Below the pieces are notes generated by a model. The model searched no databases, was not told where the DNA came from, and saw only the letters and a list, made by a program, of their open reading frames with translations. From Eledone cirrhosa (taxonomy: Eukaryota), in the NCBI GenBank assembly GCA_964016885.1, contig OZ024744.1:5580001-5644000 (forward strand): a stretch of 64,000 bases of DNA, given 5' to 3'. Shown in pieces: positions 1 through 58,585 of the stretch. Position 1 is the first letter of the stretch. Every line of letters starts with the position of its first letter. The position numbers were made by a program, and so were the translations under genes.

Positions 1-3000
1 TATCGGTTAATTTTCTCCCTCTCCTTCTCTTGCACTCTCGTGTCGAACGGGCAGGCCACATCCACAATCAGGCACGATCTTTTTTCTTTGTCCACAACCA
101 CCAGGTCAGGTCTATTGTGTTCCAGTTTTTTGTCCGTCTGTATCCTAAAATCCCACAGCACCTTCACCTGACTGTTCTCCATCACCGCCTCTGGCCTATG
201 CTCATACCATTTCTCAGAATGTGGTAGATTGTTTACTTTGCACAGGTGCCAGTGGATCACCCTGCCCATCACATCGTGTCTCCAGCCCTTATAGTGGGTC
301 TGGGCTAGGTGTTTACACTCGGACACGATGTGAGCCACAGTCTCCTCTCTCTCTCCACAGATCCTGCACAGTGGGCTAGCCTCCTCCTTGTAGATATGGT
401 GCTTCAACCACTTCGTTTTGAGGGCCTGCTCCTGCGCAGCCATTAGCATTCCTTCTGTAGCCTTTTTGAGGTCTCCTCTTCTCAACCAGTTCCATGTCTG
501 TGGATCTCTAAATTCAGTTTTCTCAAAGAAGGTACTATGAAGGGATTTTCCCTTAAGGCTGCTCTTCCTCCTTGATGTTATTTCCTCCTTGGATATCCCC
601 TGGCCTACTGTCCCCTCCTTCAGTACAGCTCTGAGCATTGGCTCCTTACTATAGGTCACGTATTTGTATAGGTTGTTTTTCTCCATCTGAACACAGTCCT
701 CTATGCTGATAAGACCTCTTCCACCCTCAGATCTCCTTAGGTAGAGTCTATCGACATCACTCCTCTTGTGGAACATGTTGTAGATAGTCAATAGCTTCCT
801 AGTCTTCCTATCCATTTCTTTTTGTTCAGCAACATTCCATCTCAGAATTCCCGCACTGTACCTAATAATAGACACAGCTCGGGAATTTACTGCGCTTATG
901 GCATTTCTGCTGTTCAGATGTGACTTCAATACGCTCCTTACTCACCGAATGTATTCAGTTCTTAACAATTCCTTCATTTTTTTGTTCTTTATGCCATCAG
1001 CCTCCAGAACGCCCAAATACTTGTATCCTTCCTCAGAGTCAATTTCCTTTATCATCTCACCTGTTGGTATCTGGATCCCGTTACTTCTGCTCAACCTACC
1101 CCTCCTCATCACAATGACTCCACATTTACCAATACCAAACTGCATACATATATCACTGCTGAAAATACGGACAGTGTCAACAAGCACATCCAACTCCTTC
1201 TCACTTTTCCCGAAGAGCTTAAGATCGTCCATGAAGAGGAGGTGATTGATGGTAAGCTCTCCCCTTCCCAACTTGTATCCTGCTCTCACTTTTCGCAGCA
1301 TAATGGTCAAGGGCATCAGGGCAAGGACAAACAACAGAGGGGACAGGCTATCTCCCTGGAAGATACCTCTCTTGATCTTCACGCTTCCCAAGGATACTCC
1401 AGTTGATGTCAACTCTGTCTCCCAGGACCCCATACTCCTGCCCAGCAACTGTCTGATGTTATCTGCCACCCTGAAGATCTCCAGGCTTTTGGTGATCCAG
1501 GAATGAGGCACCATGTCAAATGCCTTTCTGTAGTCTATCCATCCCATGGCAAGATCAGTGTGTCTCCTCCTGCAATTCCCCATTACCATCTTATCAATAA
1601 GCAACTGGTCCTTTGTACCACGTGACTTCTTTCGGCATCCTTTCTGTTCGTCCGGCAACAAGTTGTTTGTGTGGAGGTGATGGTAGATTTCCTCAGACAC
1701 AATGCTCGTCAACAGTTTCCACATTACGGGCAGACATGTGATAGGTCTATAGTTGGTAACATCATTACCCTTGATTCGGTCTTTCATTATCAGAACTGTA
1801 GTACCTTTTGTCAACCACTCTGGCACCTCACCCGACACCAAGCAGTCATTGAACATGGCCGTCAGCTTCGGGTGGAGGGATGTTAAATGTTTAATCCAAT
1901 ACCCCTGCACACCATCTGGGCCTGGTGATTTCCAGTTGGTTAGTTTTTTGGCTTGCCCCTTAAGAGTTTCAACTGTGATACTCAAATCAGTCTGTTGCTG
2001 TGCCTGCTCACCGATCTCCCTCTGTATTGTCTCAATCCACCCTGCCTGGGCATTGTGTCTAACATCCTGCTCCCATATTCCTCTCCAGAATGTTTTAGCT
2101 TGTTCCGCCCCAGGGATCAAGTCGTTGCCTCTTTCTTTCCCCTCAAGCTGTCCAAACAGCATCTTCTGGTTGTTGTCGAACATGCGGTTCTGTTTATACT
2201 GACTGACTCTGTTCTCGTATCGCCTGATTTTGGCACTCTTTGCTACAATGCGTTGCTTCAATTCCTCTATGATAATATTTAGCTTTTTACTCCTAGTTTT
2301 GTATTTTATTTCCAGTCTATTTTTAGTGCCTATGTTTTTTAGTGTCCCATTCAGTAGTGACTCAAGCTTTCCTATGTCATTTCTCATTTCCCCGATTTGC
2401 CCACTCAGTCGCTTCTTCCACCACGGCTCTGCTCTTTCTTGTCTGTTGTTTCCTCTCGCTTTTATACCAAGTAGTTTCCTCACCGTATTTGCTGTTGCTT
2501 TGAGGATATTGTTGCACTGGTGAAGACTCCTCGCCTCAAGGTATGGGATGACTTTGTTTACCTTAGCTGTTGTTTCTTTTAACTTTTTCCTGTCTAGAAA
2601 TCTTAGGTTCATAGGTCTCCCACTATCATTGTTCAACTCATCTACCACTAAATTTAGGATGTCAACCGAATCTTGTCCTAGCCCGTCAGCATTCATCTCC
2701 TCAGTGGCCGTATCTCTGTTCCAGGTATTATTTATCTCAGTATTCAGATCATTGTCTGCTTCGGGTGGTTCCTCCGTTCTCAGGACCTCCTCACCTTCAT
2801 TTCCCGCCGGCTCGCTTGTCTGGCATACTACACCCGCCATCTCCAAGCCATTCTCTCTGCTCAGTTCCTCCAGTTCCAGCTCGCTTATCCACCCATTAGT
2901 TCTTATTACCCGAGCCTGCCCGGCCAATTTTTGTTCATCTAATTTAAATAAACCAATCTCGTTCCAGATGTTATGCATCCGTCTCCTGTAGCCCCTCTCC

Positions 3001-3188
3001 TTGGGGTTACTTTTCAGGTAGCATTGCATAACAGTTCTATTCAATTCTTTCGTCCAGTTGGTTCTGGCCCCTTTCCTTCTTCTTCTTCCTCCAACATCAG
3101 CAGTATTTGGTTGACAGTCAGGTTCCTGCTGCTGAGCCAGGGGGCACCTGTTGGGTGAGAGTCTGTCACATGACGTTCTAGTCTCCAT
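1..3188 (-). pseudogene. RT-RLE ORF of unit 1, interrupted by one nonsense change (AGA>TGA at 942-944)
   Basis: ORF 942..3188 stops at RTEYIR*; downstream DNA stays near-identical to units 2-4 (ctcaccgaat vs ctctccgaat). Confidence 0.85.
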
Positions 3189-4255
3189 TTCACCGTTATT
3201 CGAACTGTTTATGTTCGATATTTAAACACTCTTATCGAGGATTGGCGAATGTATGTTTACATAGCCATCTGTGGATCCGCCATCCCACTTGGCCCTTGTG
3301 TGGCATTATCACCACGCTGTATACGGACACACATAAACAAACAAACACACGGGCAGAAAGGGCCCCAAAAATGAATAAGCATAAGTTTCATTGTAATGTA
3401 GTATTCGAATGTCTGACTTAGTTTTTGTTTTTTAAGTTTTACTTTTTCCCCCCTCTTCTCTGTCCGTCCGCCTGCTTCTCTCTTCATTCTTATTTTCTTT
3501 ACGTTTTTGGGGTTTCTTTTTTTGTTTTTGTTTTTCTCTGTTTGTTTTTCTCGTTTTTTGCTGTTGTTGCTGTGCTGCTTTTGTTGTTTGTTTTTTCTTT
3601 TTTCTTTTGAGTCTATCTATATATTTTGATGCCTTCCTCTTTGTTAGTAGTAGGAATTCTATAATGTGGAAGTGGCAGCCAGCAGAGACTGGCGGCGTTG
3701 GCGATACTGAGACAGTGGTGGTGGTGATGTCGATACCGAGGCAGTGGTGGCGGTGATGCGACCGTATTACTGTAGTGATGGTGCTGTAGCGGTGGCAGCA
3801 GCAGTGAAGGAGTCAAGGGGTGGTGGCGGCGGTGATGGGATAGTGGTGGTAATGATGGCCGTAGTGAGCGGTGGCGGTGAAGGTGAAAATGCTGTTGTGT
3901 TTAGTGTACACAGATGATGGGGTGGGTGGTGTATCTAGTTTCTGGTGTTGGTGAGTTTCGCTGTCCTATATAGTGTAGCCAGAGGAGAGGAGGGGGGGGG
4001 GGTTCTTCTTCTTCCATTTATAGCCATTTTATTTTTTTTTGGGATATACAGTGTACAATACAAAGTTGAATATTTGAATATTTGAGCCTTATAACAATAT
4101 ATTTTGGGTCCGAATTTTTTTGGGGCTCAAGCCGGGTGCTTTACGTAGCATTTGTACTAAGAGTTGTTATTTCACAAATGATTTAAATATGTTAAAAATT
4201 CAAAACTTACGGGAGCGATTTCATGACCTCCGTCACCTCGTGCGTCTTCTTCCCG
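1..4255 (-). mobile_element. R4/Dong-clade non-LTR retrotransposon, array unit 1 (3' end outside window)
   Basis: Single ORF with Myb-like N-terminus (WTKELN..CYLKSNP..GYRRRM), RT motifs NYRPITCL, WIDYRKAFD, GIFQGDSLSP, FMDD; ~1.07 kb leader ending at the next unit's (TAA)n tail. Confidence 0.9.
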
Positions 4256-4423
4256 TATTATTATTATTATTATTATTATTATTGTTATTGTTATTCCTTG
4301 AATCTCAGTCATTGATGTTGGTTAACTGGAAAGTCCGTTGGATTGAATATCAAGCCACTACCTGCAGCCTCAGATATTCAGGACGTATCGGAGGGTTCTT
4401 GCTGTTCCAAGCAAGCATGCCTT

Positions 4424-7400
4424 TTAAAGCGTTCCAAAAAGCGTGAAGGGGCCGATTTTCTTTAACCATCCCTGGAAACCTTTGGAGATAGTCCCCAGTG
4501 CGCCTATGACAATCGGGATCACTTTGACTTCATGGCAGTTCCAAATCCTTTTCACCTCCCACTTTAGGTCCTGGTATCGGTTAATTTTCTCCCTCTCCTT
4601 CTCTTGCACTCTCGTGTCGAACGGGCAGGCCACATCCACAATCAGGCACGATCTTTTTTCTTTGTCCATAACCACCAGGTCAGGTCTATTGTGTTCCAGT
4701 TTTTTGTCCGTCTGTATCCTAAAATCCCACAGCACCTTCACCTGACTGTTCTCCATCACCGCCTCTGGCCTATGCTCATACCATTTCTCAGAATGTGGTA
4801 GATTGTTTACTTTGCACAGGTGCCAGTGGATCACCCTGCCCATCACATCGTGTCTCCAGCCCTTATAGTGGGTCTGGGCTAGGTGTTTACACTCGGACAC
4901 AATGTGAGCCACAGTCTCCTCTCTCTCTCCACAGATCCTGCACAGTGGGCTAGCCTCCTCCTTATAGATATGGTGCTTCAACCACTTCGTTTTGAGGGCC
5001 TGCTCCTGCGCAGCCATTAGCATTCCTTCTGTAGCCTTTTTGAGGTCTCCTCTTCTCAACCAGTTCCATGTCTGTGGATCTCTAAATTCAGTTTTCTCAA
5101 AGAAGGTACTATGAAGGGATTTTCCCTTAAGGCTGCTCTTCCTCCTTGATGTTATTTCCTCCTTGGACATCCCCTGGCCTACTGTCCCCTCCTTCAGTAC
5201 AGTTCTGAGCATTGGCTCCTTACTATAGGTCACGTATTTGTATAGGTTGTTTTTCTCCATCTGAACACAGTCCTCTATGCTGATAAGACCTCTTCCACCC
5301 TCAGATCTCCTTAGGTAGAGTCTATCGACATCACTCCTCTTGTGGAACATGTTGTAGATAGTCAATAGCTTCCTAGTCTTCCTATCCATTTCTTTTTGTT
5401 CAGCAACATTCCATCTCAGAATTCCCGCACTGTACCTAATAATAGACACAGCTCGTGAATTTACTGCGCTTATGGCATTTCTGCTGTTCAGATGTGACTT
5501 CAATACGCTCCTTACTCTCCGAATGTATTCAGTTCTTAACAATTCCTTCATTTTTTTGTTCTTTATGCCATCAGCCTCCAGAACGCCCAAATACTTGTAT
5601 CCTTCCTCAGAGTCAATTTCCTTTATCATCTCACCTGTTGGTATCTGGATCCCGTTACTTCTGCTCAACCTACCCCTCTTCATCACAATGACTCCACATT
5701 TACCAATACCAAACTGCATACATATATAACTGCTGAAAATACGGACAGTGTCAACAAGCACATCCAACTCCTTCTCACTTTTCCCGAAGAGCTTAAGATC
5801 GTCCATGAAGAGGAGGTGATTGATGGTAAGCTCTCCCCTTCCCAACTTGTATCCTGCTCTCACTTTTCGCAGCATAATGGTCAAGGGCATCAGGGCAAGG
5901 ACAAACAACAGAGGGGACAGGCTATCTCCCTGGAAGATACCTCTCTTGATCTTCACGCTTCCCAAGGATACTCCAGTTGATGTCAACTCTGTCTCCCAGG
6001 ACCCCATACTCCTGCCCAGCAACTGTCTGATGTTATCTGCCACCCTGAAGACCTCCAGGCTTTTGGTGATCCAGGAATGAGGCACCATGTCAAATGCCTT
6101 TCTGTAGTCTATCCATCCCATGGCAAGATCAGTGTGTCTCCTCCTGCAATTCCCCATTACCATCTTATCAATAAGCAACTGGTCCTTTGTACCACGTGAC
6201 TTCTTTCGGCATCCTTTCTGTTCGTCCGGTAACAAGTTGTTTGTGTTTATGTGATGGTAGATTTCCTCAGACACAATGCTCGTCAACAGTTTCCACATTA
6301 CGGGCAGACATGTGATAGGTCTATAGTTGGTAACATCATTACCCTTGATTCGGTCTTTCATTATCAGAACTGTGGTACCTTTTGTCAACCACTCTGGCAC
6401 CTCACCCGACACCAAGCAGTCATTGAACATGGCCGTCAGCTTCGGGTGGAGGGATGTTAAATGTTTAATCCAATACCCCTGCACACCATCTGGGCCTGGT
6501 GATTTCCAGTTGGTTAGTTTTTTGGCTTGCCCCTTAAGAGTTTCAACTGTGATACTCAAATCAGTCTGTTGTTGTGCCTTCTCACCGATCTCCCTCTGTA
6601 CTGTCTCAATCCACCCTGCCTGGGCATTGTGTCTAACATCCTGCTCCCATATTCCTCTCCAGAATGTTTTAGCTTGTTCCGCCCCAGGGATCAAGTCGTT
6701 GCCTCTTTCTTTCCCCTCAAGCTGTCCAAACAGCATCTTCTGGTTGTTGTCGAACATGCGGTTCTGTTTATACTGACTGACTCTGTTCTCGTATCGCCTG
6801 ATTTTGGCACTCTTTGCTACAATGCGTTGCTTCAATTCCTCTATGATAATATTTAGCTTTTTACTCCTAGTTTTGTATTTTATTTCCAGTCTATTTTTAG
6901 TGCCTATGTTTTTTAGTGTCCCATTCAGTAGTGACTCAAGCTTTCCTATGTCATTTCTCATTTCCCCGATTTGCCCACTCAGTCGCTTCTTAAACCGCGG
7001 CTCTGCTCTTTCTTGTCTGTTGTTTCCTCTCGCTTTTATACCAAGTAGTTTCCTCACCGTATTTGCTGTTGCTTTGAGGATATTGTTGCACTGGTGAAGG
7101 CTTCTCGCCTCAAGGTATGGGATGACTTTGTTTACCTTAGCTGTTGTTTCTTTTAACTTTTTCCTGTCTACAAATCTTAGGTTCATAGGTCTCCCACTAT
7201 CATTGTTCAACTCATCTACCACTAAATTTAGGATGTCAACCGAATCTTGTCCTAGCCCGTCAGCATTCATCTCCTCAGTGGCCGTATCTCTGTTCCAGGT
7301 ATTATTTATCTCAGTATTCAGATCATTGTCTGCTTCGGGTGGTTCCTCCGTTCTCAGGACCTCCTCACCTTCATTTCCCGCCGGCTCGCTTGTCTGGCAT

Positions 7401-7762
7401 ACTACACCCGCCATCTCCAAGCCATTCTCTCTGCTCAGTTCCTCCAGTTCCAGCTCGCTTATCCACCCATTAGTTCTTATTACCCGAGCCTGCCCGGCCA
7501 ATTTTTGTTCATCTAATTTAAATAAACCAATCTCGTTCCAGATGTTATGCATCCGTCTCCTGTAGCCCCTCTCCTTGGGGTTACTTTTCAGGTAGCATTG
7601 CATAACAGTTCTATTCAATTCTTTCGTCCAGTTGGTTCTGGCCCCTTTCCTTCTTCTTCTTCCTCCAACATCAGCAGTATTTGGTTGACAGTCAGGTTCC
7701 TGCTGCTGAGCCAGGGGGCACCTGTTGGGTGAGAGTCTGTCACATGACGTTCTAGTCTCCAT
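4424..7762 (-). CDS. RT + CCHC zinc knuckle + restriction-like endonuclease (1112 aa; last 18 aa lost to CAA>TAA)
   Basis: FMDD; RLYLRRSEGGRGL; CRICGEREETVAHIVSEC; RHD; NRPDLVV..DVACP..EK..YQDL; IVIGALG; units 3/4 continue QKACLLGTARTLRYVLNI. Confidence 0.9.
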   Translation of the reverse strand: METRTSCDRLSPNRCPLAQQQEPDCQPNTADVGGRRRRKGARTNWTKELNRTVMQCYLKSNPKERGYRRRMHNIWNEIGLFKLDEQKLAGQARVIRTNGWISELELEELSRENGLEMAGVVCQTSEPAGNEGEEVLRTEEPPEADNDLNTEINNTWNRDTATEEMNADGLGQDSVDILNLVVDELNNDSGRPMNLRFVDRKKLKETTAKVNKVIPYLEARSLHQCNNILKATANTVRKLLGIKARGNNRQERAEPRFKKRLSGQIGEMRNDIGKLESLLNGTLKNIGTKNRLEIKYKTRSKKLNIIIEELKQRIVAKSAKIRRYENRVSQYKQNRMFDNNQKMLFGQLEGKERGNDLIPGAEQAKTFWRGIWEQDVRHNAQAGWIETVQREIGEKAQQQTDLSITVETLKGQAKKLTNWKSPGPDGVQGYWIKHLTSLHPKLTAMFNDCLVSGEVPEWLTKGTTVLIMKDRIKGNDVTNYRPITCLPVMWKLLTSIVSEEIYHHINTNNLLPDEQKGCRKKSRGTKDQLLIDKMVMGNCRRRHTDLAMGWIDYRKAFDMVPHSWITKSLEVFRVADNIRQLLGRSMGSWETELTSTGVSLGSVKIKRGIFQGDSLSPLLFVLALMPLTIMLRKVRAGYKLGRGELTINHLLFMDDLKLFGKSEKELDVLVDTVRIFSSYICMQFGIGKCGVIVMKRGRLSRSNGIQIPTGEMIKEIDSEEGYKYLGVLEADGIKNKKMKELLRTEYIRRVRSVLKSHLNSRNAISAVNSRAVSIIRYSAGILRWNVAEQKEMDRKTRKLLTIYNMFHKRSDVDRLYLRRSEGGRGLISIEDCVQMEKNNLYKYVTYSKEPMLRTVLKEGTVGQGMSKEEITSRRKSSLKGKSLHSTFFEKTEFRDPQTWNWLRRGDLKKATEGMLMAAQEQALKTKWLKHHIYKEEASPLCRICGEREETVAHIVSECKHLAQTHYKGWRHDVMGRVIHWHLCKVNNLPHSEKWYEHRPEAVMENSQVKVLWDFRIQTDKKLEHNRPDLVVMDKEKRSCLIVDVACPFDTRVQEKEREKINRYQDLKWEVKRIWNCHEVKVIPIVIGALGTISKGFQGWLKKIGPFTLFGTL

Positions 7763-8335
7763 TTCACCGTTATTCGAACTGTTTATGTTCGATATTTAAA
7801 CACTCTTATCGAGGATTGGCGAATGTATGTTTACATAGCCATCTGTGGATCCGCCATCCCACTTGGCCCTTGTGTGGCATTATCACCACGCTGTATACGG
7901 ACACACATAAACAAACAAACACACGGGCAGAAAGGGCCCCAAAAATGAATAAGCATAAGTTTCATTGTAATGTAGTATTCGAATGTCTGACTTAGTTTTT
8001 GTTTTTTAAGTTTTACTTTTTCCCCCCTCTTCTCTGTCCGTCCGCCTGCTTCTCTCTTCATTCTTATTTTCTTTACGTTTTTGGGGTTTCTTTTTTTGTT
8101 TTTGTTTTTCTCTGTTTGTTTTTCTCGTTTTTTGCTGTTGTTGCTGTGCTGCTTTTGTTGTTTGTTTTTTCTTTTTTCTTTTGAGTCTATCTATATATTT
8201 TGATGCCTTCCTCTTTGTTAGTAGTAGGAATTCTATAATGTGGAAGTGGCAGCCAGCAGAGACTGGCGGCGTTGGCGATACTGAGACAGTGGTGGTGGTG
8301 ATGTCGATACCGAGGCAGTGGTGGCGGTGATGCGA

Positions 8336-8986
8336 CCGTATTACTGTAGTGATGGTGCTGTAGCGGTGGCAGCAGCAGTGAAGGAGTCAAGGGGTGGTGG
8401 CGGCGGTGATGGGATAGTGGTGGTAATGATGGCCGTAGTGAGCGGTGGCGGTGAAGGTGAAAATGCTGTTGTGTTTAGTGTACACAGATGATGGGGTGGG
8501 TGGTGTATCTAGTTTCTGGTGTTGGTGAGTTTCGCTGTCCTATATAGTGTAGCCAGAGGAGAGGAGGGGTGGGGGGGTTCTTCTTCTTCCATTTATAGCC
8601 ATTTTATTTTTTTTTTGGATATACAGTGTACAATACAAAGTTGAATATTTGAATATTTGAGCCGTATTACTGTAGTGATGGTGCTGTAGCGGTGGCAGCA
8701 GCAGTGAAGGAGTCAAGGGGTGGTGGCGGCGGTGATGGGATAGTGGTGGTAATGATGGCCGTAGTGAGCGGTGGCGGTGAAGGTGAAAATGCTGTTGTGT
8801 TTAGTGTACACAGATGATGGGGTGGGTGGTGTATCTAGTTTCTGGTGTTGGTGCGTTTAGCTGTCCTATATAGTGTAGCCAGAGGAGAGGAGGGGGGGGG
8901 GTTCTTCTTCTTCCATTTATAGCCATTTTTTTTTTTTTTGGATATACAGTGTACAATACAAAGTTGAATATTTGAATATTTGAGCC
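8336..8986. repeat. ~326 bp direct tandem duplication within the unit 2 leader
   Basis: ccgtattactgtagtgatgg...tttgaatatttgag at 8336-8661 and again at 8662-8986; single copy in units 1 and 3. Confidence 0.9.
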
Positions 8987-9152
8987 TTATAACAATATAT
9001 TTTGGGTCCGAATTTTTTTGGGGCTCAAGCCGGGTGCTTTACGTAGCATTTGTACTAAGAGTTGTTATTTCACAAATGATTTAAATATGTTAAAAATTCA
9101 AAACTTACGGGAGCGATTTCATGACCTCCGTCACCTCGTGCGTCTTCTTCCC

Positions 9153-9153
<1 letters not shown>

Positions 9154-9187
<34 letters not shown>

Positions 9188-12100
9188 GTTATTGTTATTC
9201 CTTGAATCTCAGTCATTGATGTTGGTTAACTGGAAAGTCCGTTGGATTGAATATCAAGCCACTACCTGCAGCCTCAGATATTCAGGACGTATCGGAGGGT
9301 TCTTGCTGTTCCAAGCAAGCATGCCTTTTGAAGCGTTCCAAAAAGCGTGAAGGGGCCGATTTTCTTTAACCATCCCTGGAAACCTTTGGAGATAGTCCCC
9401 AGTGCGCCTATGACAATCGGGATCACTTTGACTTCATGGCAGTTCCAAATCCTTTTCACCTCCCACTTTAGGTCCTGGTATCGGTTAATTTTCTCCCTCT
9501 CCTTCTCTTGCACTCTCGTGTCGAACGGGCAGGCCACATCCACAATCAGGCACGATCTTTTTTCTTTGTCCATAACCACCAGGTCAGGTCTATTGTGTTC
9601 CAGTTTTTTGTCCGTCTGTATCCTAAAATCCCACAGCACCTTCACCTGACTGTTCTCCATCACCGCCTCTGGCCTATGCTCATACCATTTCTCAGAATGT
9701 GGTAGATTGTTTACTTTGCACAGGTGCCAGTGGATCACCCTGCCCATCACATCGTGTCTCCAGCCCTTATAGTGGGTCTGGGCTAGGTGTTTACACTCGG
9801 ACACAATGTGAGCCACAGTCTCCTCTCTCTCTCCACAGATCCTGCACAGTGGGCTAGCCTCCTCCTTGTAGATATGGTGCTTCAACCACTTCGTTTTGAG
9901 GGCCTGCTCCTGCGCAGCCATTAGCATTCCTTCTGTAGCCTTTTTGAGGTCTCCTCTTCTCAACCAGTTCCATGTCTGTGGATCTCTAAATTCAGTTTTC
10001 TCAAAGAAGGTACTATGAAGGGATTTTCCCTTAAGGCTGCTCTTCCTCCTTGATGTTATTTCCTCCTTGGACATCCCCTGGCCTACTGTCCCCTCCTTCA
10101 GTACAGTTCTGAGCATTGGCTCCTTACTATAGGTCACGTATTTGTATAGGTTGTTTTTCTCCATCTGAACACAGTCCTCTATGCTGATAAGACCTCTTCC
10201 ACCCTCAGATCTCCTTAGGTAGAGTCTATCGACATCACTCCTCTTGTGGAACATGTTGTAGATAGTCAATAGCTTCCTAGTCTTCCTATCCATTTCTTTT
10301 TGTTCAGCAACATTCCATCTCAGAATTCCCGCACTGTACCTAATAATAGACACAGCTCGGGAATTTACTGCGCTTATGGCATTTCTGCTGTTCAGATGTG
10401 ACTTCAATACGCTCCTTACTCTCCGAATGTATTCAGTTCTTAACAATTCCTTCATTTTTTTGTTCTTTATGCCATCAGCCTCCAGAACGCCCAAATACTT
10501 GTATCCTTCCTCAGAGTCAATTTCCTTTATCATCTCACCTGTTGGTATCTGGATCCCGTTACTTCTGCTCAACCTACCCCTCTTCATCACAATGACTCCA
10601 CATTTACCAATACCAAACTGCATACATATATAACTGCTGAAAATACGGACAGTGTCAACAAGCACATCCAACTCCTTCTCACTTTTCCCGAAGAGCTTAA
10701 GATCGTCCATGAAGAGGAGGTGATTGATGGTAAGCTCTCCCCTTCCCAACTTGTATCCTGCTCTCACTTTTCGCAGCATAATGGTCAAGGGCATCAGGGC
10801 AAGGACAAACAACAGAGGGGACAGGCTATCTCCCTGGAAGATACCTCTCTTGATCTTCACGCTTCCCAAGGATACTCCAGTTGATGTCAACTCTGTCTCC
10901 CAGGACCCCATACTCCTGCCCAGCAACTGTCTGATGTTATCTGCCACCCTGAAGACCTCCAGGCTTTTGGTGATCCAGGAATGAGGCACCATGTCAAATG
11001 CCTTTCTGTAGTCTATCCATCCCATGGCAAGATCAGTGTGTCTCCTCCTGCAATTCCCCATTACCATCTTATCAATAAGCAACTGGTCCTTTGTACCACA
11101 TGACTTCTTTCGGCATCCTTTCTGTTCGTCCGGTAACAAGTTGTTTGTGTGGAGGTGATGGTAGATTTCCTCAGACACAATGCTCGTCAACAGTTTCCAC
11201 ATTACGGGCAGACATGTGATAGGTCTATAGTTGGTAACATCATTACCCTTGATTCGGTCTTTCATTATCAGAACTGTGGTACCTTTTGTCAACCACTCTG
11301 GCACCTCACCCGACACCAAGCAGTCATTGAACATGGCCGTCAGCTTCGGGTGGAGGGATGTTAAATGTTTAATCCAATACCCCTGCACACCATCTGGGCC
11401 TGGTGATTTCCAGTTGGTTAGTTTTTTGGCTTGCCCCTTAAGAGTTTCAACTGTGATACTCAAATCAGTCTGTTGTTGTGCCTTCTCACCGATCTCCCTC
11501 TGTACTGTCTCAATCCACCCTGCCTGGGCATTGTGTCTAACATCCTGCTCCCATATTCCTCTCCAGAATGTTTTAGCTTGTTCCGCCCCAGGGATCAAGT
11601 CGTTGCCTCTTTCTTTCCCCTCAAGCTGTCCAAACAGCATCTTCTGGTTGTTGTCGAACATGCGGTTCTGTTTATACTGACTGACTCTGTTCTCGTATCG
11701 CCTGATTTTGGCACTCTTTGCTACAATGCGTTGCTTCAATTCCTCTATGATAATATTTAGCTTTTTACTCCTAGTTTTGTATTTTATTTCCAGTCTATTT
11801 TTAGTGCCTATGTTTTTTAGTGTCCCATTCAGTAGTGACTCAAGCTTTCCTATGTCATTTCTCATTTCCCCGATTTGCCCACTCAGTCGCTTCTTAAACC
11901 GCGGCTCTGCTCTTTCTTGTCTGTTGTTTCCTCTCGCTTTTATACCAAGTAGTTTCCTCACCGTATTTGCTGTTGCTTTGAGGATATTGTTGCACTGGTG
12001 AAGGCTCCTCGCCTCAAGGTACCACTAAATTTCGGATGTCAACCGAATCTTGTCCTAGCCCGTCAGCATTCACCTCCTCAGTGGCCGTATCTCTGTTCCA

Positions 12101-13648
12101 GGTATTATTTATCTCAGTATTCAGATCATTGTCTGCTTCGGGTGGTTCCTCCGTTCTCAGGACCTCTTCACCTTCATTTCCCACTGGCTCGCTTGTCGGG
12201 CATACTACACCCGCCATCTCCCAGCCATTCTCTCTGCTCAGTTCCTCCAGTTCCAGCTCGCTTATCCACCCATTCGTTGTTATTACCCGAGCCTGCCCGG
12301 CCAATTTTTGTTCATCTAATTTAAATAAACCAATCTCGTTCCAGATGTTTGCATCCGTCTCCTGTAGCCCCTCTCCTTGGGGTTACTTTTCAGGTAACAT
12401 TGCATAACAGTTCTATTCAATTCTTTCGTCCAGTTGGTCCTGGCCCCTTTCCTTCTTCTCCTTCCTCCAACATCAGCAGTATTTGGTTGACAGTCAGGTT
12501 CCTGCTGCTGAGCCAGGGGGCACCTGTTGGGTGAGAGTCTGTCACATGACGTTCTAGTCTCCATTTCACCGTTATTCGAACTGTTTATGTTCGATATTTA
12601 AACACTCTTATCGAGGATTGGCGAATGTATGGTTACATAACCATCTGTGGATCCGCCATTCCACTTGGCCCTTGTGTGGAATTATCACCACGCTGTATAC
12701 GAACACACATAAACAAACAAACACACAGGCAGAAAGGGCCCCAAAAATGAATAAGCATAAGTTTCATTGTAATGTAGTGTTCGAATGTCTGACTTAGTTT
12801 TTGTTTTTTAAGTTTTAGTTTCTCCCCCCTCTTCTCTGTCCGTCCGCCTGCTTCTCTCTTCATTCTTATTTTCTTTACGTTTTGGGGTTTTTTTTTTTGT
12901 TTTTGTTTTTCTCTGTTTGTTTTTCTCGTTTTTTGCTGTTGTTGCTGTGCTGCTTTGGTTTTGTTGTTTGTTTTTTCTTTTTTCTTTTTTCTTTTGAGTC
13001 TATCTATATATTTTGATGCCTTCCTCTTTTTTAGCAGTAAGGATTCTATAATGTGGAAGTGGCAGCCAGCTGGAAGAGGTGGGAGACTGGCGGCGGTAGC
13101 GATACTGAGACAGTGGTGGTGGTGATGTCGATACCGAGGCAGTGGTGGCGATGATGTGACCGTATTACTGTAGTGATGGTGCTGTAGCGGTGGTAGCAGT
13201 GAAGGAGTGAAGGGGTGGTGGCGGCGGTGATGGGATAATGGTGGTAATGATGGCCGTAGTGAGCGGTGGTGGTGAAAATGCCGTTATCTGGCTGTTGTGT
13301 TTAGTGGACACAGGTGATGGGGCGGGTGGTGTATCTAGTTTCTGGTGTTGGTGAGTTTGGCTGTTCTATATAGTGTAGACAGAGGAGAGGAGGGGGGGGG
13401 GGGGTTCTTCTTCCATTTATAGCCATTTTCTTTTTGGGATATACAGTGTACAATACAAAGTTGAATATTTGAATATTTGAACCTTATAACAATATATTTT
13501 GGGTCCGAATTTTTTGGGGCTCAAGCCGGGTGCTTTACGTAGCATTTGTACTAAGAGTTGTTATTTCACAAATGATTTAAATATGTTAAAAATTCAAAAC
13601 TTACGGGAGCGATTTCATGACCTCCGTCACCTCGTGCGTCTTCTTCCC
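9154..13648 (-). mobile_element. R4/Dong-clade retrotransposon, array unit 3 (~101 bp deletion at ~12022; diverged 5' part)
   Basis: ORF 9274..11961 intact from the pre-RT region to the C-terminus; N-terminal fragments 12014..12304 and 12316..12564 are frameshifted. Confidence 0.92.
9274..12564 (-). pseudogene. RT-RLE ORF of unit 3, disrupted N-terminally
   Basis: caaggta|ccactaaa junction removes ~101 bp relative to unit 2; a further frameshift near 12348. Confidence 0.85.
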
Positions 13649-13695
<47 letters not shown>

Positions 13696-16600
13696 GTTAT
13701 TGTTATTCCTTGAATCTCAGTCATTGATGTTGGTTAACTGGAAAGTCCGTTGGATTGAATATCAAGCCACTACCTGCAGCCTCAGATATTCAGGACGTAT
13801 CGGAGGGTTCTTGCCGTTCCAAGCAAGCATGCCTTTTGAAGCGTTCCAAAAAGCGTGAAGGGGCCGATTTTCTTTAACCATCCCTGGAAACCTTTGGAGA
13901 TAGTCCCCAGTGCGCCTATGACAATCGGGATCACTTTGACTTCATGGCAGTTCCAAATCCTTTTCACCTCCCACTTTAGGTCCTGGTATCGGTTAATTTT
14001 CTCCCTCTCCTTCTCTTGCACTCTCGTGTCGAACGGGCAGGCCACATCCACAATCAGGCACGATCTTTTTTCTTTGTCCACAACCACCAGGTCAGGTCTA
14101 TTGTGTTCCAGTTTTTTGTCCGTCTGTATCCTAAAATCCCACAGCACCTTCACCTGACTGTTCTCCATCACCGCCTCTGGCCTATGCTCATACCATTTCT
14201 CAGAATGTGGTAGATTGTTTACTTTGCACAGGTGCCAGTGGATCACCCTGCCCATCACATCGTGTCTCCAGCCCTTATAGTGGGTCTGGGCTAGGTGTTT
14301 ACACTCGGACACAATGTGAGCCACAGTCTCCTCTCTCTCTCCACAGATCCTGCACAGTGGGCTAGCCTCCTCCTTGTAGATATGGTGCTTCAACCACTTC
14401 GTTTTGAGGGCCTGCTCCTGCGCAGCCATTAGCATTCCTTCTGTAGCCTTTTTGAGGTCTCCTCTTCTCAACCAGTTCCATGTCTGTGGATCTCTAAATT
14501 CAGTTTTCTCAAAGAAGGTACTATGAAGGGATTTTCCCTTAAGGCTGCTCTTCCTCCTTGATGTTATTTCCTCCTTGGGTATCCCCTGGCCTACTGTCCC
14601 CTCCTTCAGTACAGCTCTGAGCATTGGCTCCTTACTATAGGTCACGTATTTGTATAGGTTGTTTTTCTCCATCTGAACACAGTCCTCTATGCTGATAAGA
14701 CCTCTTCCACCCTCAGATCTCCTTAGGTAGAGTCTATCGACATCACTCCTCTTGTGGAACATGTTGTAGATAGTCAATAGCTTCCTAGTCTTCCTATCCA
14801 TTTCTTTTTGTTCAGCAACATTCCATCTCAGAATTCCCGCACTGTACCTAATAATAGACACAGCTCGGGAATTTACTGCGCTTATGGCATTTCTGCTGTT
14901 CAGATGTGACTTCAATACGCTCCTTTCTCTCCGAATGTATTCAGTTCTTAACAATTCCTTCATTTTTTTGTTCTTTATGCCATCAGCCTCCAGAACGCCC
15001 AAATACTTGTATCCTTCCTCAGAGTCAATTTCCTTTATCATCTCACCTGTTGGTATCTGGATCCCGTTACTTCTGCTCAACCTACCCCTCCTCATCACAA
15101 TGACTCCACATTTACCAATACCAAACTGCATACATATATCACTGCTGAAAATACGGACAGTGTCAACAAGCACATCCAACTCCTTCTCACTTTTCCCGAA
15201 GAGCTTAAGATCGTCCATGAAGAGGAGGTGATTGATGGTAAGCTCTCCCCTTCCCAACTTGTATCCTGCTCTCACTTTTCGCAGCATAATGGTCAAGGGC
15301 ATCAGGGCAAGGACAAACAACAGAGGGGACAGGCTATCTCCCTGGAAGATACCTCTCTTGATCTTCACGCTTCCCAAGGATACTCCAGTTGATGTCAACT
15401 CTGTCTCCCAGGACCCCATACTCCTGCCCAGCAACTGTCTGATGTTATCTGCCACCCTGAAGATCTCCAGGCTTTTGGTGATCCAGGAATGAGGCACCAT
15501 GTCAAATGCCTTTCTGTAGTCTATCCATCCCATGGCAAGATCAGTGTGTCTCCTCCTGCAATTCCCCATTACCATCTTATCAATAAGCAACTGGTCCTTT
15601 GTACCACGTGACTTCTTTCGGCATCCTTTCTGTTCGTCCGGCAACAAGTTGTTTGTGTGGTGGTGATGGTAGATTTCCTCAGACACAATGCTCGTCAACA
15701 GTTTCCACATTACGGGCAGACATGTGATAGGTCTATAGTTGGTAACATCATTACCCTTGATTCGGTCTTTCATTATCAGAACTGTGGTACCTTTTGTCAA
15801 CCACTCTGGCACCTCACCCGACACCAAGCAGTCATTGAACATGGCCGTCAGCTTCGGGTGGAGGGATGTTAAATGTTTAATCCAATACCCCTGCACACCA
15901 TCTGGGCCTGGTGATTTCCAGTTGGTTAGTTTTTTGGCTTGCCCCTTAAGAGTTTCAACTGTGATACTCAAATCAGTCTGTTGCTGTGCCTGCTCACCGA
16001 TCTCCCTCTGTATTGTCTCAATCCACCCTGCCTGGGCATTGTGTCTAACATCCTGCTCCCATATTCCTCTCCAGAATGTTTTAGCTTGTTCCGCCCCAGG
16101 GATCAAGTCGTTGCCTCTTTCTTTCCCCTCAAGCTGTCCAAACAGCATCTTCTGGTTGTTGTCGAACATGCGGTTCTGTTTATACTGACTGACTCTGTTC
16201 TCGTATCGCCTGATTTTGGCACTCTTTGCTACAATGCGTTGCTTCAATTCCTCTATGATAATATTTAGCTTTTTACTCCTAGTTTTGTATTTTATTTCCA
16301 GTCTATTTTTAGTGCCTATGTTTTTTAGTGTCCCATTCAGTAGTGACTCAAGCTTTCCTATGTCATTTCTCATTTCCCCGATTTGCCCACTCAGTCGCTT
16401 CTTCCACCACGGCTCTGCTCTTTCTTGTCTGTTGTTTCCTCTCGCTTTTATACCAAGTAGTTTCCTCACCGTATTTGCTGTTGCTTTGAGGATATTGTTG
16501 CACTGGTGAAGACTCCTCGCCTCAAGGTATGGGATGACTTTGTTTACCTTAGCTGTTGTTTCTTTTAACTTTTTCCTGTCTAGAAATCTTAGGTTCATAG

Positions 16601-16895
16601 GTCTCCCACTATCATTGTTCAACTCATCTACCACTAAATTTAGGATGTCAACCGAATCTTGTCCTAGCCCGTCAGCATTCATCTCCTCAGTGGCCGTATC
16701 TCTGTTCCAGGTATTATTTATCTCAGTATTCAGATCATTGTCTGCTTCGGGTGGTTCCTCCGCTCTCAGGACCTCCTCACCTTCATTTCCCGCCGGCTCG
16801 CTTGTCTGGCATACTACACCCGCCATCTCCAAGCCATTCTCTCTGCTCAGTTCCTCCAGTTCCAGCTCGCTTATCCACCCATTAGTTCTTATTAC
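13649..16895 (-). mobile_element. R4/Dong-clade retrotransposon, 5'-truncated unit 4, flanked by TAA repeats on both sides
   Basis: Open frame from VIRTNGW to YVLNI* (13782); tail 13649-13707; (ATT)n begins at the truncation point. Confidence 0.92.
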
Positions 16896-16973
<78 letters not shown>

Positions 16974-17086
16974 CCCCCTCCTCCCCCTCCCTCTTCTTCT
17001 TCTTCTTCTTCTTCTTCTTCTTCTTCTTCTTCTTCTTCTTCTTCTTCTTCTTCTTCTTCTTCTTCTTCTTGTTCTTCTTCTTCTTC
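16896..17086. repeat. (ATT)n then (CTT)n microsatellites
   Basis: Visible directly: 16896-16973 and ~16992-17086. Confidence 0.95.

Positions 17087-25186: not shown

Positions 25187-25188
<2 letters not shown>
22330..25188 (+). mobile_element. RTE-group LINE (APE + RT) inserted in (TA)n
   Basis: GTLNVRT, IQEHR, LGDFSAH, QIDFIL (APE); NYRGISL, GVLQGDTLAP, FADD (RT); LAGHAHRH..RGRPRL; (TA)n at 22305-22329 and 25189-25231. Confidence 0.85.
22503..25188 (+). pseudogene. APE-RT ORF in three pieces (22503..23417, 23447..24484, 24481..25188)
   Basis: Apparent internal deletion near 23410 (APE SDH motif missing) and a frameshift after FADD. Confidence 0.8.
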
Positions 25189-41800: not shown

Positions 41801-44570
41801 AGGGCGAGACGTACCCAGAAATGCTTCCAGGCGTCTAAAGAAGTCCGGCCTTCCTGCCCCAGTAGGGGCGTAGAAAGCCACCAGTCTAAAGGCACCACCT
41901 TCGCTAGGGGAGATTTGGTTATTTCGCAAATTACACAAATTATTTGATATAACTCGTTGTGTTTTCTCTGCGAGTACCGAGAGGAATACAACAGTTCACG
42001 TCCAGGACCACCAACTTCCTGTCCGGGTCCCGGAAGATCGACCTTACCTCGAGATCCAGGCCTTTCCTAAACAACACTGCCACCCCGCCTCCCATTCCCG
42101 GCCGGCTAACAGATGCAAAGATCTGATAGTCGTCGAAAATGGGGGCTAGTGCGCGCGTGTCGGAAATCCTGGTCTCGCTGACGGCAATTACATCCATTTC
42201 TATAGACCTGAGGTCGTTGTGCAGGTGACCCTGCTTCCAGGACGATCCCAGGCCTCGAACATTTAAACTTCCTGCTCTTAATACGGCCATGATGGCAGGT
42301 TAAAAGAGAGAGAGATGAAAGGTTTACTTACCTTCCGGGCTCTTGTGAAGGTCGGGTGGTTCCACCTCCATAGTTTGTGGGGTTTCTTTTGGGACCTCCT
42401 TTAACAGTCTTGAAGTTGGTTTTACGTTCGGGGTTCCCACGTCTCGAGGAAAGCTGTTTCGTATTTCTTTGAATATGTCGAGCGACATTCGCACCAGAAC
42501 CAAATCTTCCAGCACGCGAAATGTGCTTGATTTAAAAATGTCCCCCTCTTTTTGTATATTTTCACTTCGTGCTACGAGGGCCATCAGTTCCTTGTTGGCC
42601 CTCTTGACGATCACAAAGTTTTGTATGTTTTGTTGGTGTGATTTTATTTGTTTACGTGGCTGTGGTGGTGATGGTTTTGGTGGTGTTGTTTCGGTTGTGT
42701 CTGTGTTTGTTGTGAGTGCGGTGTCTGTGGTTTCAGATGTTTGTGTGTATATTTATCTTGCGTCTGTTTCGGTTGTTTGCGTTTGGCGGATTCTGGTGAT
42801 GGTGATGGTGGTGTTGATGTTGGTGTTATTGGAGAGATGTTTGCGTGGGTGGTGTCTGCATTTTCTATTGGGGGTGATTTTGTCCTTTGTTGAGTTTTTT
42901 CTTCTTTTTGTGTTTCCTTTTTTGTATTTTGGGGGATTTTGGTTTTCCCTCATCTTCACTACTGGTAGATGAGGGGTCTGTGTCTGTAAGTGTGTCTGTA
43001 TGTATGTTTAAGGTTGTATTGGTGTGTGTAATTTGTTTGGGGGGAGGAGGAATTTGACAACTTTCCTCGTTTCCCCCCTGGGTAGTCAATGTTGGTGGTG
43101 GTATTTCTATTAGTGTTGTTGTTGGTGGTTTTGCCGGTGCTGGTGATGGTTGTGGTCCTCGTCCCGGCGTCGGCAGCAGTGGAGCCCTTCGACCCCTTGC
43201 ATCTTTCAGCAGTTGAGGGCAGAAGGCTCGCAAATGGGTTTTTTCCCCACAAACAAAACAATGCGGCCTTTTGCCCTCGGTCATAATGTGAATGACCGTC
43301 CCATTCTGAAGGCGGATGTTGTCTGGGATTGTCCTCACATTCTCGGGCCTGATCTGGAGAAGGATCTCCAGGTCAACCCCGGACCAGTCCTCTCTGGCCG
43401 TTCTGGTCACTTCTATAGGGACTTATCTGACCCTCCACAATCACACATCCTAGAAGCCACCACATGTCAAGTGCTGGTGGGATTCTGGGAATGCGGAGAC
43501 GGGCCGTTCTTTTTCCCATGTGGGAGGGGCACATTATGACCTTGCTGGTTTTGCAAGGAGTCATAGCGTGTTTCATAGCGAGGGCTTCTGACTTGAACAA
43601 CACCGAAATGGTGCCGTACTGTCTCCTCCTCTCTATGTACTGGGTGTCTTCTCTGATGCACCTCAGCGCGACTTCGACATCTGCTTGTGGAATTAAAGCT
43701 GCCCTTTTGGTTTGTACTGAGATGCATCTATAATGCACCGTTTTGCGCTCCACTGCCTCAATAGCTTCTACCGGGACAGTTAAGTTGGCCCAAGTTTGCT
43801 CTTGCTTGATGAGCTTCCAGGCCTGGGCCAACTTTTCATCTTTGTTTGAGAGGTTCATGTTAAAGCATGGCCTCTTTTTTGTTGCTGCCGCAGCAAAAGT
43901 GATGTTCTTGTCGTTGATCTTGTTGGTGTTGGAGGTGTTGTTGTTGTTGTTGTCGTTGTTCTTGTTGGTGTTGGAGGTGTTGTTGTTGTTGTCGTTGTTC
44001 TTGTTGGTGTTGTTGTTATCACTGTCGCTGTTATCATTGTTGTCTTTGTTGCTGCCGTTGTTCTCGGTGCAGTTGGTATTGTTGATGTTGATGTTGTCGC
44101 TATTTGTTTTCATGTTAGTGGTGTTGATATTGTTGTTGTATTTGTTTTGTTTTTTTTTGTTATCTGTATTTTCGTTGTCACTGTTTAGGTCATTTTTTTT
44201 CAAATTAGAGTTCTCAGTGTTGTTATCATTGCTGTCTTTGTTTACCTTGTTTGTGGTGGTGTTTGTGTTATCAATTTGTGTTAATTTCGCCGTAGCGCTC
44301 CTCTCAACTTCTACGTCGTTGTCGCACGACAGCAGACATATCGCTGGGGAGCGTGGATCAACCATGTTTTTTTTTTTTTCGATAATTTTTTTAAATGTAA
44401 AAGCGTTCAAATATTTGGGCCAAAAGGCCCAAATATTATTATTTCCCCTTCGCAGGGCAAAGTCCAAGGGCTTATATCCATCACACAACAACGAAGAATT
44501 CAATAAATAAGTGTTGACAGGTAAATAAATAAACTTACGAGACCGAGTAAAAAGACGTCCGTTCAGACTC
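38318..44570 (-). mobile_element. Full-length but decayed Tx1-clade (L1 group) retrotransposon #1 between AAT repeats
   Basis: ORF1 from ATG 44365 with Asn-rich N-terminus and CFVCGEKTHLRAFC knuckle; ORF2 from 42290 with APE (SET, GDWN, SDH, GYWKLN), RT (FRPITLLN, DQSKAFDRVDH, YADD), CPRC..H..C; 3' end AATAAAtGAAATC-(ATT)n. Confidence 0.9.
38619..38889. repeat. AAATGAAAC(GA)n minisatellite inside the Tx1 #1 ORF2 C-terminus
   Basis: ~9 variable units interrupting VEREVLS...FAERWV. Confidence 0.85.
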
Positions 44571-48327: not shown

Positions 48328-50262
48328 TTACCTTACTTCTCGTAGGGGAAGGACGGCTTTTCCATCCTTTTCACTGCTTGTGGCCTCCTCAGGAAGGATG
48401 TCCTTATAAATCCTCCTGGAGAGTGCTTGTCGGAAGTCTCCGATGTCTTTGGGGAATTTTTGTTTTAGTGTCATGTACGTTTTCTGTGTGATGCGAGTGA
48501 TTTGTATGTGTGGAGGTGGTGTGAATTTCGGGGTTGTTGTGTAGTCTTTTTCTGTGATGCTGGTGTTGTGTTGGATGTAGTGTAATAATTGGTTGTTGTT
48601 CAAATTTAATGCTGTGTAGTGTGTATCGTTTTGGTTGCTTTGTTTTGTTTGCGTTTGTTGTGGGCTTGTTTCTGTTTCGCATTTTGGTGACTTTTGTGGT
48701 GTAGGTGATGGTGGTGTTGGGGTTAATGATGGTGATGGTGTTGGTGTTTGGGGTGATGGGGTTGGTGATGCTGGTGTGGATGGTGGCATATCTGTCCTAA
48801 ATTTTTTGTTTGTTAATTTATTTGTTTCCCTCTGTATTTTGTTTTTGGAGGGGGAAGGAAGAGAATCTTTTCTTTTCTGGTTTCTTTTTTTCTTTTTTCC
48901 TGATACCGTTTCCCACTCCTCGTCGTCACAATCTGTCTCCAGTTGTGATAGGCCGGGGAGTGAAAAATCCTCCACAGGCGTTAGTTTTGGTTGTGGCGTG
49001 GTGGATGGTGTAGGCGCTGGTGCTATTTCTGAAGCGTTGGGTGGTGGTGGTGGTGTTGGTTTTGCTGGTGGTGGTGGTGTTGGTTTTGCTACTGTTGCTG
49101 GGGTTGTTGATGTTATAGTTGCTTCTGTTGTTGCTGCTACAGTTGTTGCTGCCATCTCTGCTACTGGTGGTGTTGATGGTTGAGTCACTGGTGTGGGTAG
49201 GGGAGGTGGCCTCAACCGTTTAGCCTGAGGGCAGAAAGCCCTTAGGTGGGTTCCTTCACCACAAACGACACACCTAGGCCTTCTGCCCTCGACAATTACG
49301 GTGAGGTGGCTGCCGTCAGTGAGGTCTATTACCTTTGGGATCTCCTCAATGCTTTTTTGGTCCGCTTGGATCAGGAGCTCCATCCCAGATCCGGACCAGT
49401 TCTCCTGCCTTTCTTTTGCTATTGCTATTATATTTGTGTTGGCTTCGATGCCGGCGAGGACGGCCGCTATTAGCCAGGGAATTTCGATGGCCGGTGGAAC
49501 GTGGGTCACCCTGATCTTTACGAGTCTCTGGCCACAATAGCTTGGGACGAGTGTGAAGTCGTCACTTCTTAATGGGGCCATGGAGTGTTCTCTAGCCTCC
49601 TCTGGTGTTTCAAAGAACACGTCCACGGTTCCATACTTCTGCCCATGTCTGATGTGGGTTTTTCTTGCCCACACATGTCCCAAAGCTTTTTGGATTTGGG
49701 ACTCGGATGCCCGTTCCACTCGGCGCGATTTTACATTAATTGTTCGATACGACACGGTGCATAGGCGCCGATGCTCCATTTTATTAGGTGGGGGGGGGGC
49801 TGACCCTGTACCCATCTAAAGTTACCTGGATCGCTTCGCACGTTTTTGCTACTCTGGCAAAACTCAGGGTAGTTTTCTTAATTTCATTGTTGCTGTTGTT
49901 GTTATCGTTATTTTTGCTATTGTTAATTTTAGTTTCAGTTGTGGTGGTGGTGGCGTCAGTGGTGTTCGGTGTGGAAGAGTTCATTTTAGTTGAATTCATT
50001 TAGATATCACGAGTTAATTTATTTTTTTCTTTTGTTTCTGTTGTCGCTGTGGTGTAGTGGTGTGGTGGTTGTTGCGGTGGTGGTGGTAGCGGCTTTAACA
50101 CCTGCAGTCATTGGTAATGGCGGGAAATTAATGTCTGCCTGAGACATTTAAAATATTGGTACTGCTTACATTTACAGTGTTGGCAAACGTAGCAATATTT
50201 ACAATGGTGGTGTCGGTGTGAGGTGTTAGTTTGTGAGGAAGGAGTGACTCTGAGTCGTCCAT
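48328..50262 (-). pseudogene. Tx1 #2 ORF1 (zinc knuckle, Pro/Thr-rich), N-terminus frameshifted
   Basis: 495 aa ORF 48328..49815, upstream piece 49784..49999, and an ATG at 50262 after an A-rich tract. Confidence 0.75.
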
Positions 50263-50477
50263 GATTTTTCAAAGAAAAATTTTTGTTTGATAATTATAAA
50301 AAGTTTAAATTTGGGGCTCAAGGCCCCAATATTTTTGAGTGTCCTTTTCAGAAATCAATGTATGTGCACTTATATACAGTTAACAATAAAACGTTTCCAT
50401 AAATGGCAATTTTAAACAACTGAAAATAACAAACCTTTGCGGAGCTCACGATGATACGATTTACTACGTAGGTCGCC

Positions 50478-50513
<36 letters not shown>

Positions 50514-50530
50514 TAATAATAATAATAATA

Positions 50531-53500: not shown

Positions 53501-54771
53501 TAACCATGCACAGAATGCATCACTCTAAGGCAGATACAGATAGAATATATCTCCCTAGGAAAGAAGGAGGACGTGGGTCAATCCAGTTAGATATTGCATT
53601 GAAAACTGCAACAATTGGATTATCTACATATCTAAGGGAATCACATGATTGGATGATCAAACTCGTTTTGAAACACGAAAGCATCAAAAGATCATACTCC
53701 ATTACAAAAGATGCATAAAGATACAGTAATGGACTACACATTTCAGAAGTTACATTTACTGCTGAAATGGAAAACACAGAAAAAGCAAAGCAGGTAAAAG
53801 TAACTGCAAATAAAGAACTGCTACAGAAACTGGCTAAGAAATGGCAAGAAAAGCCTCTGTATGGAAAATACCCAGAACGAGCTAACTATCCTGATGTTGA
53901 CAAAACTTTAACCCATCAGTGGTTGGCATCCTCTGGACTGAAATCGGAGACTGAAGGACTGATTATATCAGCACAAGATCAGTGTCTGCCAACAAAAAAA
54001 TTACCAAGCCAACATAATAAAAAATGGATGCAGCCCATTATGCCGTGTATGTAAAAAACAACCAGAGATCATTGACCATATAATTTCAATGTGCAGTCCT
54101 ATAGCTCCAACCGAATACCTAAACAGGCATGACAGAGCTGCACAATACATACATTGGATAATGTGTAAGCATTTTGACCTGCCCCATCAAAAGAATTGGT
54201 GGGAGCATCAACCACCTCCCATACTTGAAAAAGATCACATCTCAATCTTGTGGAACTTTAGCATCCAAACAAACCGAAAAATAGATGCAAATAGACCTGA
54301 TAGAATACTGAAGGACTTTAAAAAGAGGGTATGCCTGCTAATTGATATGTCCGTTCCAATAGACAAGTATGTATCTATAAAAACATTTGAAAAATTGAGC
54401 AAGTATAAGGACCTGGAGATAGAAATTTGAAAAATGTGGAAATTGAGAACTAAAACAATACCAGTGGTTGTAGGCGCTCTAGGAATGATACCTAAGGGGT
54501 CTAATGATTACTTATCGCAAATCCCAGGAAACCCGCAAAAGATAGTACTAATGGGAACTGCCCATATACTAAGGAAGTTTCTGTCAATATAAGTTCATCA
54601 CAAGTCTAAACACCTAAAGATGCATGTGTGAGTATGTATGTTCTTTCTTGAACATGGCGGACCTTGTTGTCTCTTGAGGTCACTGGTTGTGACTTGGTGA
54701 TAACTCGTATGAACATAAAGCAAGATAAATGCAGCTGTAATAATAATAATAATAAGAAGAATAGTAATAAT
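50531..54771 (+). mobile_element. Second R4/Dong family element, full-length but decayed, flanked by TAA repeats
   Basis: KWSREDNK, KSPGKDKIPNFW, NYRPITCL, GIFQGDSLSP, FYMDD, RIYLPRKEGGRG, ETEGLIISAQDQ, RHD, NRPD, KLSKYKDLEIE; tail taataataat at 54738. Confidence 0.88.
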
Positions 54772-58330: not shown

Positions 58331-58585
58331 AGTCGGATATCTCTACGAATTCGAATAAAAAAAAGGTGTCTTCAGAAGATATAGTTAGAAGAATATCCAG
58401 TTATTCAACATGACTGCAGTTGTGGCATTACTGTCGGAGATAGTATTCATCTTAAATTTAATAAATAGTCTCCCACGCCCAAATATGCAACTGATCGCAT
58501 TGACTGTATGTATGTATGTATGTATGTATGTATGTATGTATGTATGTATGTATGTATGTATGTATGTATGTATGTATGTATGTAT

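Follow-up and report, generated by a model that had tools for sequence, protein, structure and literature searches.

A TAA-targeting RLE retrotransposon family of Eledone cirrhosa with a probably Tx1-derived 5' head

The 64,000-nucleotide stretch of Eledone cirrhosa DNA analyzed here (the window) begins with a TAA-targeting RT-RLE element whose first ~230 nt form a head homologous to Tx1 5' UTRs; on balance, we consider it probable that this head was captured and that it acts as an internal polymerase II promoter, an activity that we infer. What is new here is that the head is common to a second RLE family; the first-pass annotation had proposed a captured leader but missed both this sharing and an intron within the head. 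Background on the field is available in PMC4640811 and PMC3774820, the latter describing, in the part concerned, the transcription of RLE elements outside rDNA as poorly understood. Dong elements (R4 clade) are presented in the relevant sections of PMC3812793 as TAA-targeting RLE retrotransposons, and those of PMC13282606 report recent Dong-R4 activity in Octopus vulgaris.

A dispersed RLE family and its leader

Positions 1-16888 hold four minus-strand RT-RLE units in tandem, with (TAA)n between them:

1..3221, minus strand: RT-RLE ORF of unit 1, continuing past the window edge, with the stop at 942-944
4256..4295, minus strand: (TAA)n target/tail separating unit 2 from unit 1
4296..9152, minus strand: unit 2, full length, with a 1123-aa open frame at 4424-7795 and a 326-bp duplication at 8336-8990
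9200..13648, minus strand: unit 3, with a ~100-bp deletion near 12020
13708..16888, minus strand: unit 4, 5'-truncated and leaderless

The 1123-aa frame of unit 2 lacks an APE; alongside its RT it has a CCHC knuckle and a motif of the RLE type. RVT_1 was the sole strong match in a Pfam search of the units, the closest PDB matches of the unit 2 protein were R2 proteins, and none of the 120 listed homologues carried an informative name. We take the CCHC at residue 952 and the RPD..D..P at residue 1037 to be a knuckle and a PD-(D/E)xK-like nuclease, respectively. Because the ORF runs RT-CCHC-RLE without APE and insertion is into (TAA)n, the units fit the Dong type of the R4 clade, as judged from ORF layout and TAA target. 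Classification of the units as Tx1/L1-group elements overall was rejected, given the missing APE and the lack of ORF1 homology.

An identical 13-mer, each time preceded by a (TAA)n run, starts units 1-3 at 4254, 9152, and 13648 (minus strand), bearing out the earlier claim of one shared start position. The stretch common to all three ahead of the ORF is likewise present, although at ~1.03 kb (4254-3222) it is slightly longer than the ~0.9 kb first given. The unit 3 leader had been called more diverged; this applies to the leader beyond the head (95.6% identity to unit 1), whereas the head itself is 99.1% identical and the ORF body 99.3%. The tandem 326-bp duplication in the unit 2 leader, which spans the A-tract and the ATG, is common in the young family (19/30 loci). 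Long (GAA)n runs (16974-17086; L012, L160, L176, L178, L247, L250) lie directly 5' of many Dong starts and echo the GAAGAAGA start of the head, with RT slippage as a possible origin.

A search of the 3.0-Gb genome with the leader (query 3990-4255) yielded 1333 candidates, 40 of which were scored. In all 30 fetched loci, distributed over 9 contigs and including two of the window's own units, the match started at the first leader bases and the leader was joined to an RT-RLE ORF. All 28 inspected 5' flanks were TAA-type runs; the other two loci lacked the exact motif. Members of this dispersed family thus have the leader as their genuine 5' end, and the junction of leader and ORF at 30/30 loci on 9 contigs excludes a local duplication, so that the earlier proposal of leader and Dong unit transposing together at unlinked TAA sites stands and its stated counter-case, a junction existing at this locus only, does not hold. 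Tx1 elements occupy the same microsatellite on the opposite strand, after (ATT)n; the leader therefore has the Dong orientation and is not a separate Tx1 insertion.

An older family-1 subfamily comprised 865 candidates, and 27/30 of its loci ran into a family-1 ORF, mostly at 70-90% amino acid identity. Such older subfamilies bear related heads, which supports a leader-ORF fusion far older than this array, as had been suggested. Contigs of another organism matched parts of the older leader and of the ORF at ~90-97% identity, none bridging head and ORF, and a second set from another organism held one near-identical contig at low depth; all other-organism contigs were left out of the evidence.

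Similarity of the head to Tx1 5' UTRs

The following features bear on the comparison between the unit 1 leader and the window's Tx1 elements:

4020..4254, minus strand: Tx1-homologous head of unit 1, from the 5' end to the first ATG
3935..4027, minus strand: 30-codon upstream frame from the head ATG, at the position of the Tx1 ORF1 start
3684..4019, minus strand: ACC-rich low-complexity leader, common to swapped family-2 copies to about 3684
3222..3683, minus strand: family-1-specific remainder of the leader (A-rich tract and proximal UTR), with no Tx1 homology and no Rfam ribozyme
44360..44570, minus strand: 5' UTR of Tx1 #1, after (ATT)n, with an ATG opening a 330-codon frame
50255..50477, minus strand: 5' UTR of Tx1 #2, following (ATT)n and facing a family-2 copy head-to-head

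The neighboring elements carry Exo_endo_phos, RVT_1, and zf-RVT domains, a separate ORF1, and (ATT)n 5' flanks, and they are assigned to the Tx1 clade on their domains and target specificity. The first ~230 nt of the leader are colinear with 5' UTRs of Tx1 families that target (ATT)n. In local alignments, the first 235 nt scored z 6.8 against Tx1 #1 and 3.8 against Tx1 #2, with 0/500 shuffles reaching either score, compared with z 1.65 for a control RLE 5' UTR in the same test. The earlier claim that the leader resembles Tx1 5' ends, which an absence of any similarity to Tx1/L1 5' ends was to have overturned, is therefore upheld above chance, albeit for the first ~230 nt and not for the remainder of the 0.9 kb. 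The shared words fared unevenly: CGTAAGTTT is common to Tx1 #1 and CTTGAGCCCCAAA to Tx1 #2, but the CTTGAGCCCCAAA match falls off the global-alignment diagonal and is thus not a homologous position.

Pattern searches yielded further Tx1-type heads, with Tx1 ORF1 and/or ORF2 downstream in 11 of 20 fetched. Most Tx1 heads were located via the GTAAGT motif, and for this reason the later tests were limited to the sequence following it. Against 22 dereplicated Tx1-type heads, with 20-nt local shuffles as background, the post-motif similarity was z 7.8 for unit 1, 11.4 for the old subfamily, and 4.5 for family 2, while four control UTRs gave z -0.9 to 0.7 and 0/600 decoys (AT-rich genomic windows) equaled the unit 1 score. 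A Tx1-only profile recovered 34/34 old Dong heads at E<=1e-3 and no reversed decoys at E<=20. The same profile gave weak scores to the young heads, unit 1 included, with 3 of about 80 reaching E<=1, a count from overlapping loci in which heads recur more than once. A profile of the old heads matched units 1-3 at E 2e-9 to 4e-8 and none of the window's Tx1 heads at E<0.8. The old head and a Tx1 head align nearly gap-free over ~185 nt at ~63%, reaching through the ATG. Identity between Tx1 heads and the Dong head is ~60-65%, with the nearest Tx1 at ~63%, and no donor Tx1 family with a near-identical head was found: a search for the Dong-type head after (ATT)n gave four matches (control 3), all Dong-linked, which contradicts the expectation that the same leader also heads bona fide Tx1 copies.

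Beyond the head, the resemblance ends. The A-tract and the ATG (4027) do follow, as described, and the ATG frame is 30 codons long. Pro/Thr-rich and Lys-rich frames are also present; however, their likeness to Tx1 ORF1 is compositional only (z at most 1.4 in 22/22 pairs), and nothing above composition was found past the head ATG. An ORF1 remnant in the leader was consequently rejected on these scores, with one 48-nt blastn match (E 8e-4) and none by tblastx. No Rfam ribozyme family was detected in the leader, whose folding z values were -0.4 and +1.0, and an R2-like read-through element with a self-cleaving ribozyme was disfavored because no described family of this kind was detected at the 5' end, although an undescribed ribozyme may be present.

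Two further observations concern the Tx1 elements themselves. Their 5' UTRs contain a palindrome just 5' of the A-tract (44400-44440, 50305-50340), only the right half of which is kept in Dong heads. Several Tx1 families insert specifically after (ATT)n (44571-44630, 50478-50530; L007, L020, L152), giving head-to-head Tx1/Dong pairs.

Head exchange between RLE families and an intron in the head

Two other RLE families are represented in the window, and the head carries a predicted exon-intron structure:

50531..54500 (end approximate), plus strand: 5'-truncated copy of RLE family 2, full-length copies of which bear the same head
58290..58506, minus strand: 5' UTR of RLE family 3, used as a control, at (TACA)n sites and with no Tx1-like head
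4211..4254, minus strand: predicted first exon, 44 nt, with the junction seen in spliced genomic relatives
4205..4210, minus strand: GTAAGT 5' splice donor, common to many Tx1 heads
4031..4210, minus strand: intron position in unit 1, with the acceptor AG absent
13430..13604, minus strand: putative intron of unit 3, 175 nt, with GT and AG present and its use suggested by relatives

Family 2 (4038 candidates) has 35-37% protein identity to family 1. The shared head starts 16 of 28 oriented family-2 loci, 12 at 73-76% to unit 1 and four at 86-87% over 571 nt (leader positions 1-571 of unit 1); three of these four were fetched in full, and each contained a family-2 ORF. L237-L239 pair a head of family-1 type with a family-2 ORF. 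The reverse arrangement is seen in L113, whose family-1 ORF is preceded by a leader of family-2 type (91% over 707 nt) that passes into the tail of the old family-1 leader. Monophyly of the family-2 heads was rejected (p-AU 1e-4) in a test with eight rows, one having been dropped; the head tree omits D2_L129 because its motif did not match. Mixed tandem arrays of the families occur at L237, L239, and L132. These comparisons indicate that the head has been exchanged in both directions between families 1 and 2. The exchange claim rests on identities because the RT tree did not show the two families to be non-sisters: the tree constrained to sisterhood scored higher (p-AU 0.63). Since the heads are 74-87% alike while the proteins are 35-37% identical, the sharing appears to be recent. 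In family-2 loci (L123 and others), a G+C-rich proximal UTR lies ~400 nt 5' of the ORF; it is 97-98% conserved, with possible stems and no Rfam match.

Family 3 is distant, at 25-34% amino acid identity on pieces; its own ~215-nt UTR was present in 28/30 loci, and no Tx1-like head was found in the 30. This family (58290-58586; L182-L211), distantly related to the Dong units, numbers 5183 candidates with 5' ends after (TACA)n.

The donor GTAAGT is kept in 61/67 Dong heads, whereas the acceptor AG is absent in 46/46 contexts of young family-1 copies, which had been selected for their similarity to unit 1. At 25 genomic places the motif is not followed by G; 21 show point or small changes and four lack ~170 nt from GT onward. 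A direct junction search returned the same four copies (control 1), against 1963 unspliced exact matches. The four represent three events: L249 and L250, on separate contigs and in different subfamily variants, each show an exact GT-to-AG junction without microhomology, and the tandem pair L247/L248 has the exact donor with a deletion ending 5 nt before the AG. All four lie in family-2-type leaders, and three show a family-2 ORF start in the fetched stretch. Judged from these genomic copies, the head seems to hold a rarely spliced intron, and such copies imply a polymerase II RNA containing the head. Spliced copies were absent among eight Tx1 family-A variants, all of which lack GTAAGT and are unspliced; the donor is therefore not universal in Tx1.

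Origin of the head and its possible role

The preferred direction of transfer would be from Tx1 to Dong: in Tx1, the head ATG is the start of a long ORF1 (330 codons in Tx1 #1), but the frame it begins in Dong is short and dead (30 codons in unit 1, <=27 in 15/18 old heads); together with the headless family 3, these short frames favor that direction. Capture could have occurred by 5' transduction after a sense Dong insertion into the AAT/AAC-rich start of a Tx1 element; alternatively, the Dong RT could have jumped templates. The Tx1 promoter was most likely captured once and then retained, rearranged, and traded between co-targeting RLE lineages. The later swaps between families 1 and 2 may reflect recombination within mixed tandem arrays at (TAA)n sites used by both, or template switching there. 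Transcription would begin at the head, with unspliced RNA propagating and spliced copies being near dead ends.

The strongest competing explanation, which we regard as unlikely, accepts a Tx1 origin but makes the head a passenger, or an aid to RNA stability, U1 binding, or translation, with Dong relying on read-through or another promoter. Instability of the leader past the head (the 326-bp duplication and the mosaics) and degeneration of the Tx1 palindrome in Dong would suit such a passenger; yet dispersed copies keep one start position, four subfamily types retain the head and swap it as a block, no Rfam ribozyme is present to cut a precise end from a read-through transcript, and the spliced copies imply polymerase II RNA with the head. 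Less probable still is a third source, for example a non-autonomous element or the first exon/intron of a host gene, that gave the head to Tx1 and Dong separately. The exon-intron-ATG layout does resemble a gene 5' end, a near-identical Tx1 donor was not found, and the head tree, in which Dong heads form one branch against 13 Tx1 heads, is unrooted and gives no direction. Against this, the head is present in many divergent Tx1 families, fused to their ORF1 start, and the similarity continues through the ATG.

Transfer from Dong to Tx1 is very improbable in our assessment. Two very distant RLE families bear the head, and old and young Dong heads differ by about 0.5 changes per site, as much as some Tx1 heads do, which would favor it; but the contrast between head and protein identities points to recent sharing among RLE families, the uORF that starts at the head ATG is dead in Dong, and family 3 is headless. 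Compositional chance or convergence, or a junction created by local duplication, is largely refuted: the sequence is AT-rich and young heads score weakly after bias correction, but the local-shuffle and decoy controls, the near gap-free colinear alignment over ~185 nt, and, for duplication, the 1333 candidates genome-wide all speak against it.

The proposed capture of a Tx1 promoter by Dong has partial parallels. As in the Dong elements of PMC3812793, a single RT-CCHC-RLE ORF, a (TAA)n target and tail, and tandem arrays are present; unlike the elements covered in the sections consulted from PMC3812793 and PMC13282606, those here have a leader of ~1 kb that includes an intron and a head homologous to Tx1. 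The octopus Dong and Tx1 families given in the pertinent parts of PMC13282606 and PMC9115989 include no such chimera, and no prior report of a Tx1-derived leader on Dong/R4 came up in the openly searchable literature. The closest precedents are R2/R1 hybrid SIDEs and L1 5' UTR recruitment. In the Drosophila SIDEs (PMC3414825), a 5' module of one LINE clade is likewise joined to another at a shared target locus, template jump or recombination being proposed; SIDEs, however, are not autonomous, and what they acquire is a ribozyme (RLE to APE), whereas in the present case the acquired part seems to be the 5' UTR of an APE clade and the recipient an autonomous RLE element. Mouse L1 also shows 5' UTR replacement and exchange among co-existing families (PMC3600994), but there it stays within L1, whereas here it would span the APE/RLE divide and involve RLE families with 35-37% protein identity. 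Human L1 SpIREs (PMC5860796) are integrated copies, few in number, from which part of the 5' UTR has been spliced out; their donor site is conserved because it lies inside a promoter element. By that definition, integrated copies without the exact GT-AG intron, L249 and L250 qualify, although the present case involves an RLE element and a borrowed head that is a candidate promoter. L1 chimeras and promoter co-option are treated in bioRxiv 10.1101/2025.02.02.635956.

More tentatively, and short of what we would call probable, a portable L1/Tx1 promoter-exon-intron cassette may have made read-through RLE elements self-transcribing and, traded among distant lineages sharing a microsatellite, may help to explain their thousands of copies. 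Here, an autonomous, high-copy family seems to have captured a promoter across the deepest LINE split, and the case suggests that a shared target site lets distant lineages exchange 5' modules. It supplies a short, defined fragment and may be of interest to developers of RLE-based insertion tools.

Elsewhere in the window, positions 22467-25188 (plus strand) hold an APE-RT element, presumably RTE-like, with (AT)n runs on its flanks. At L114:6224-6314, an (AT)n loop is enclosed by a perfect inverted repeat of ~40 bp.
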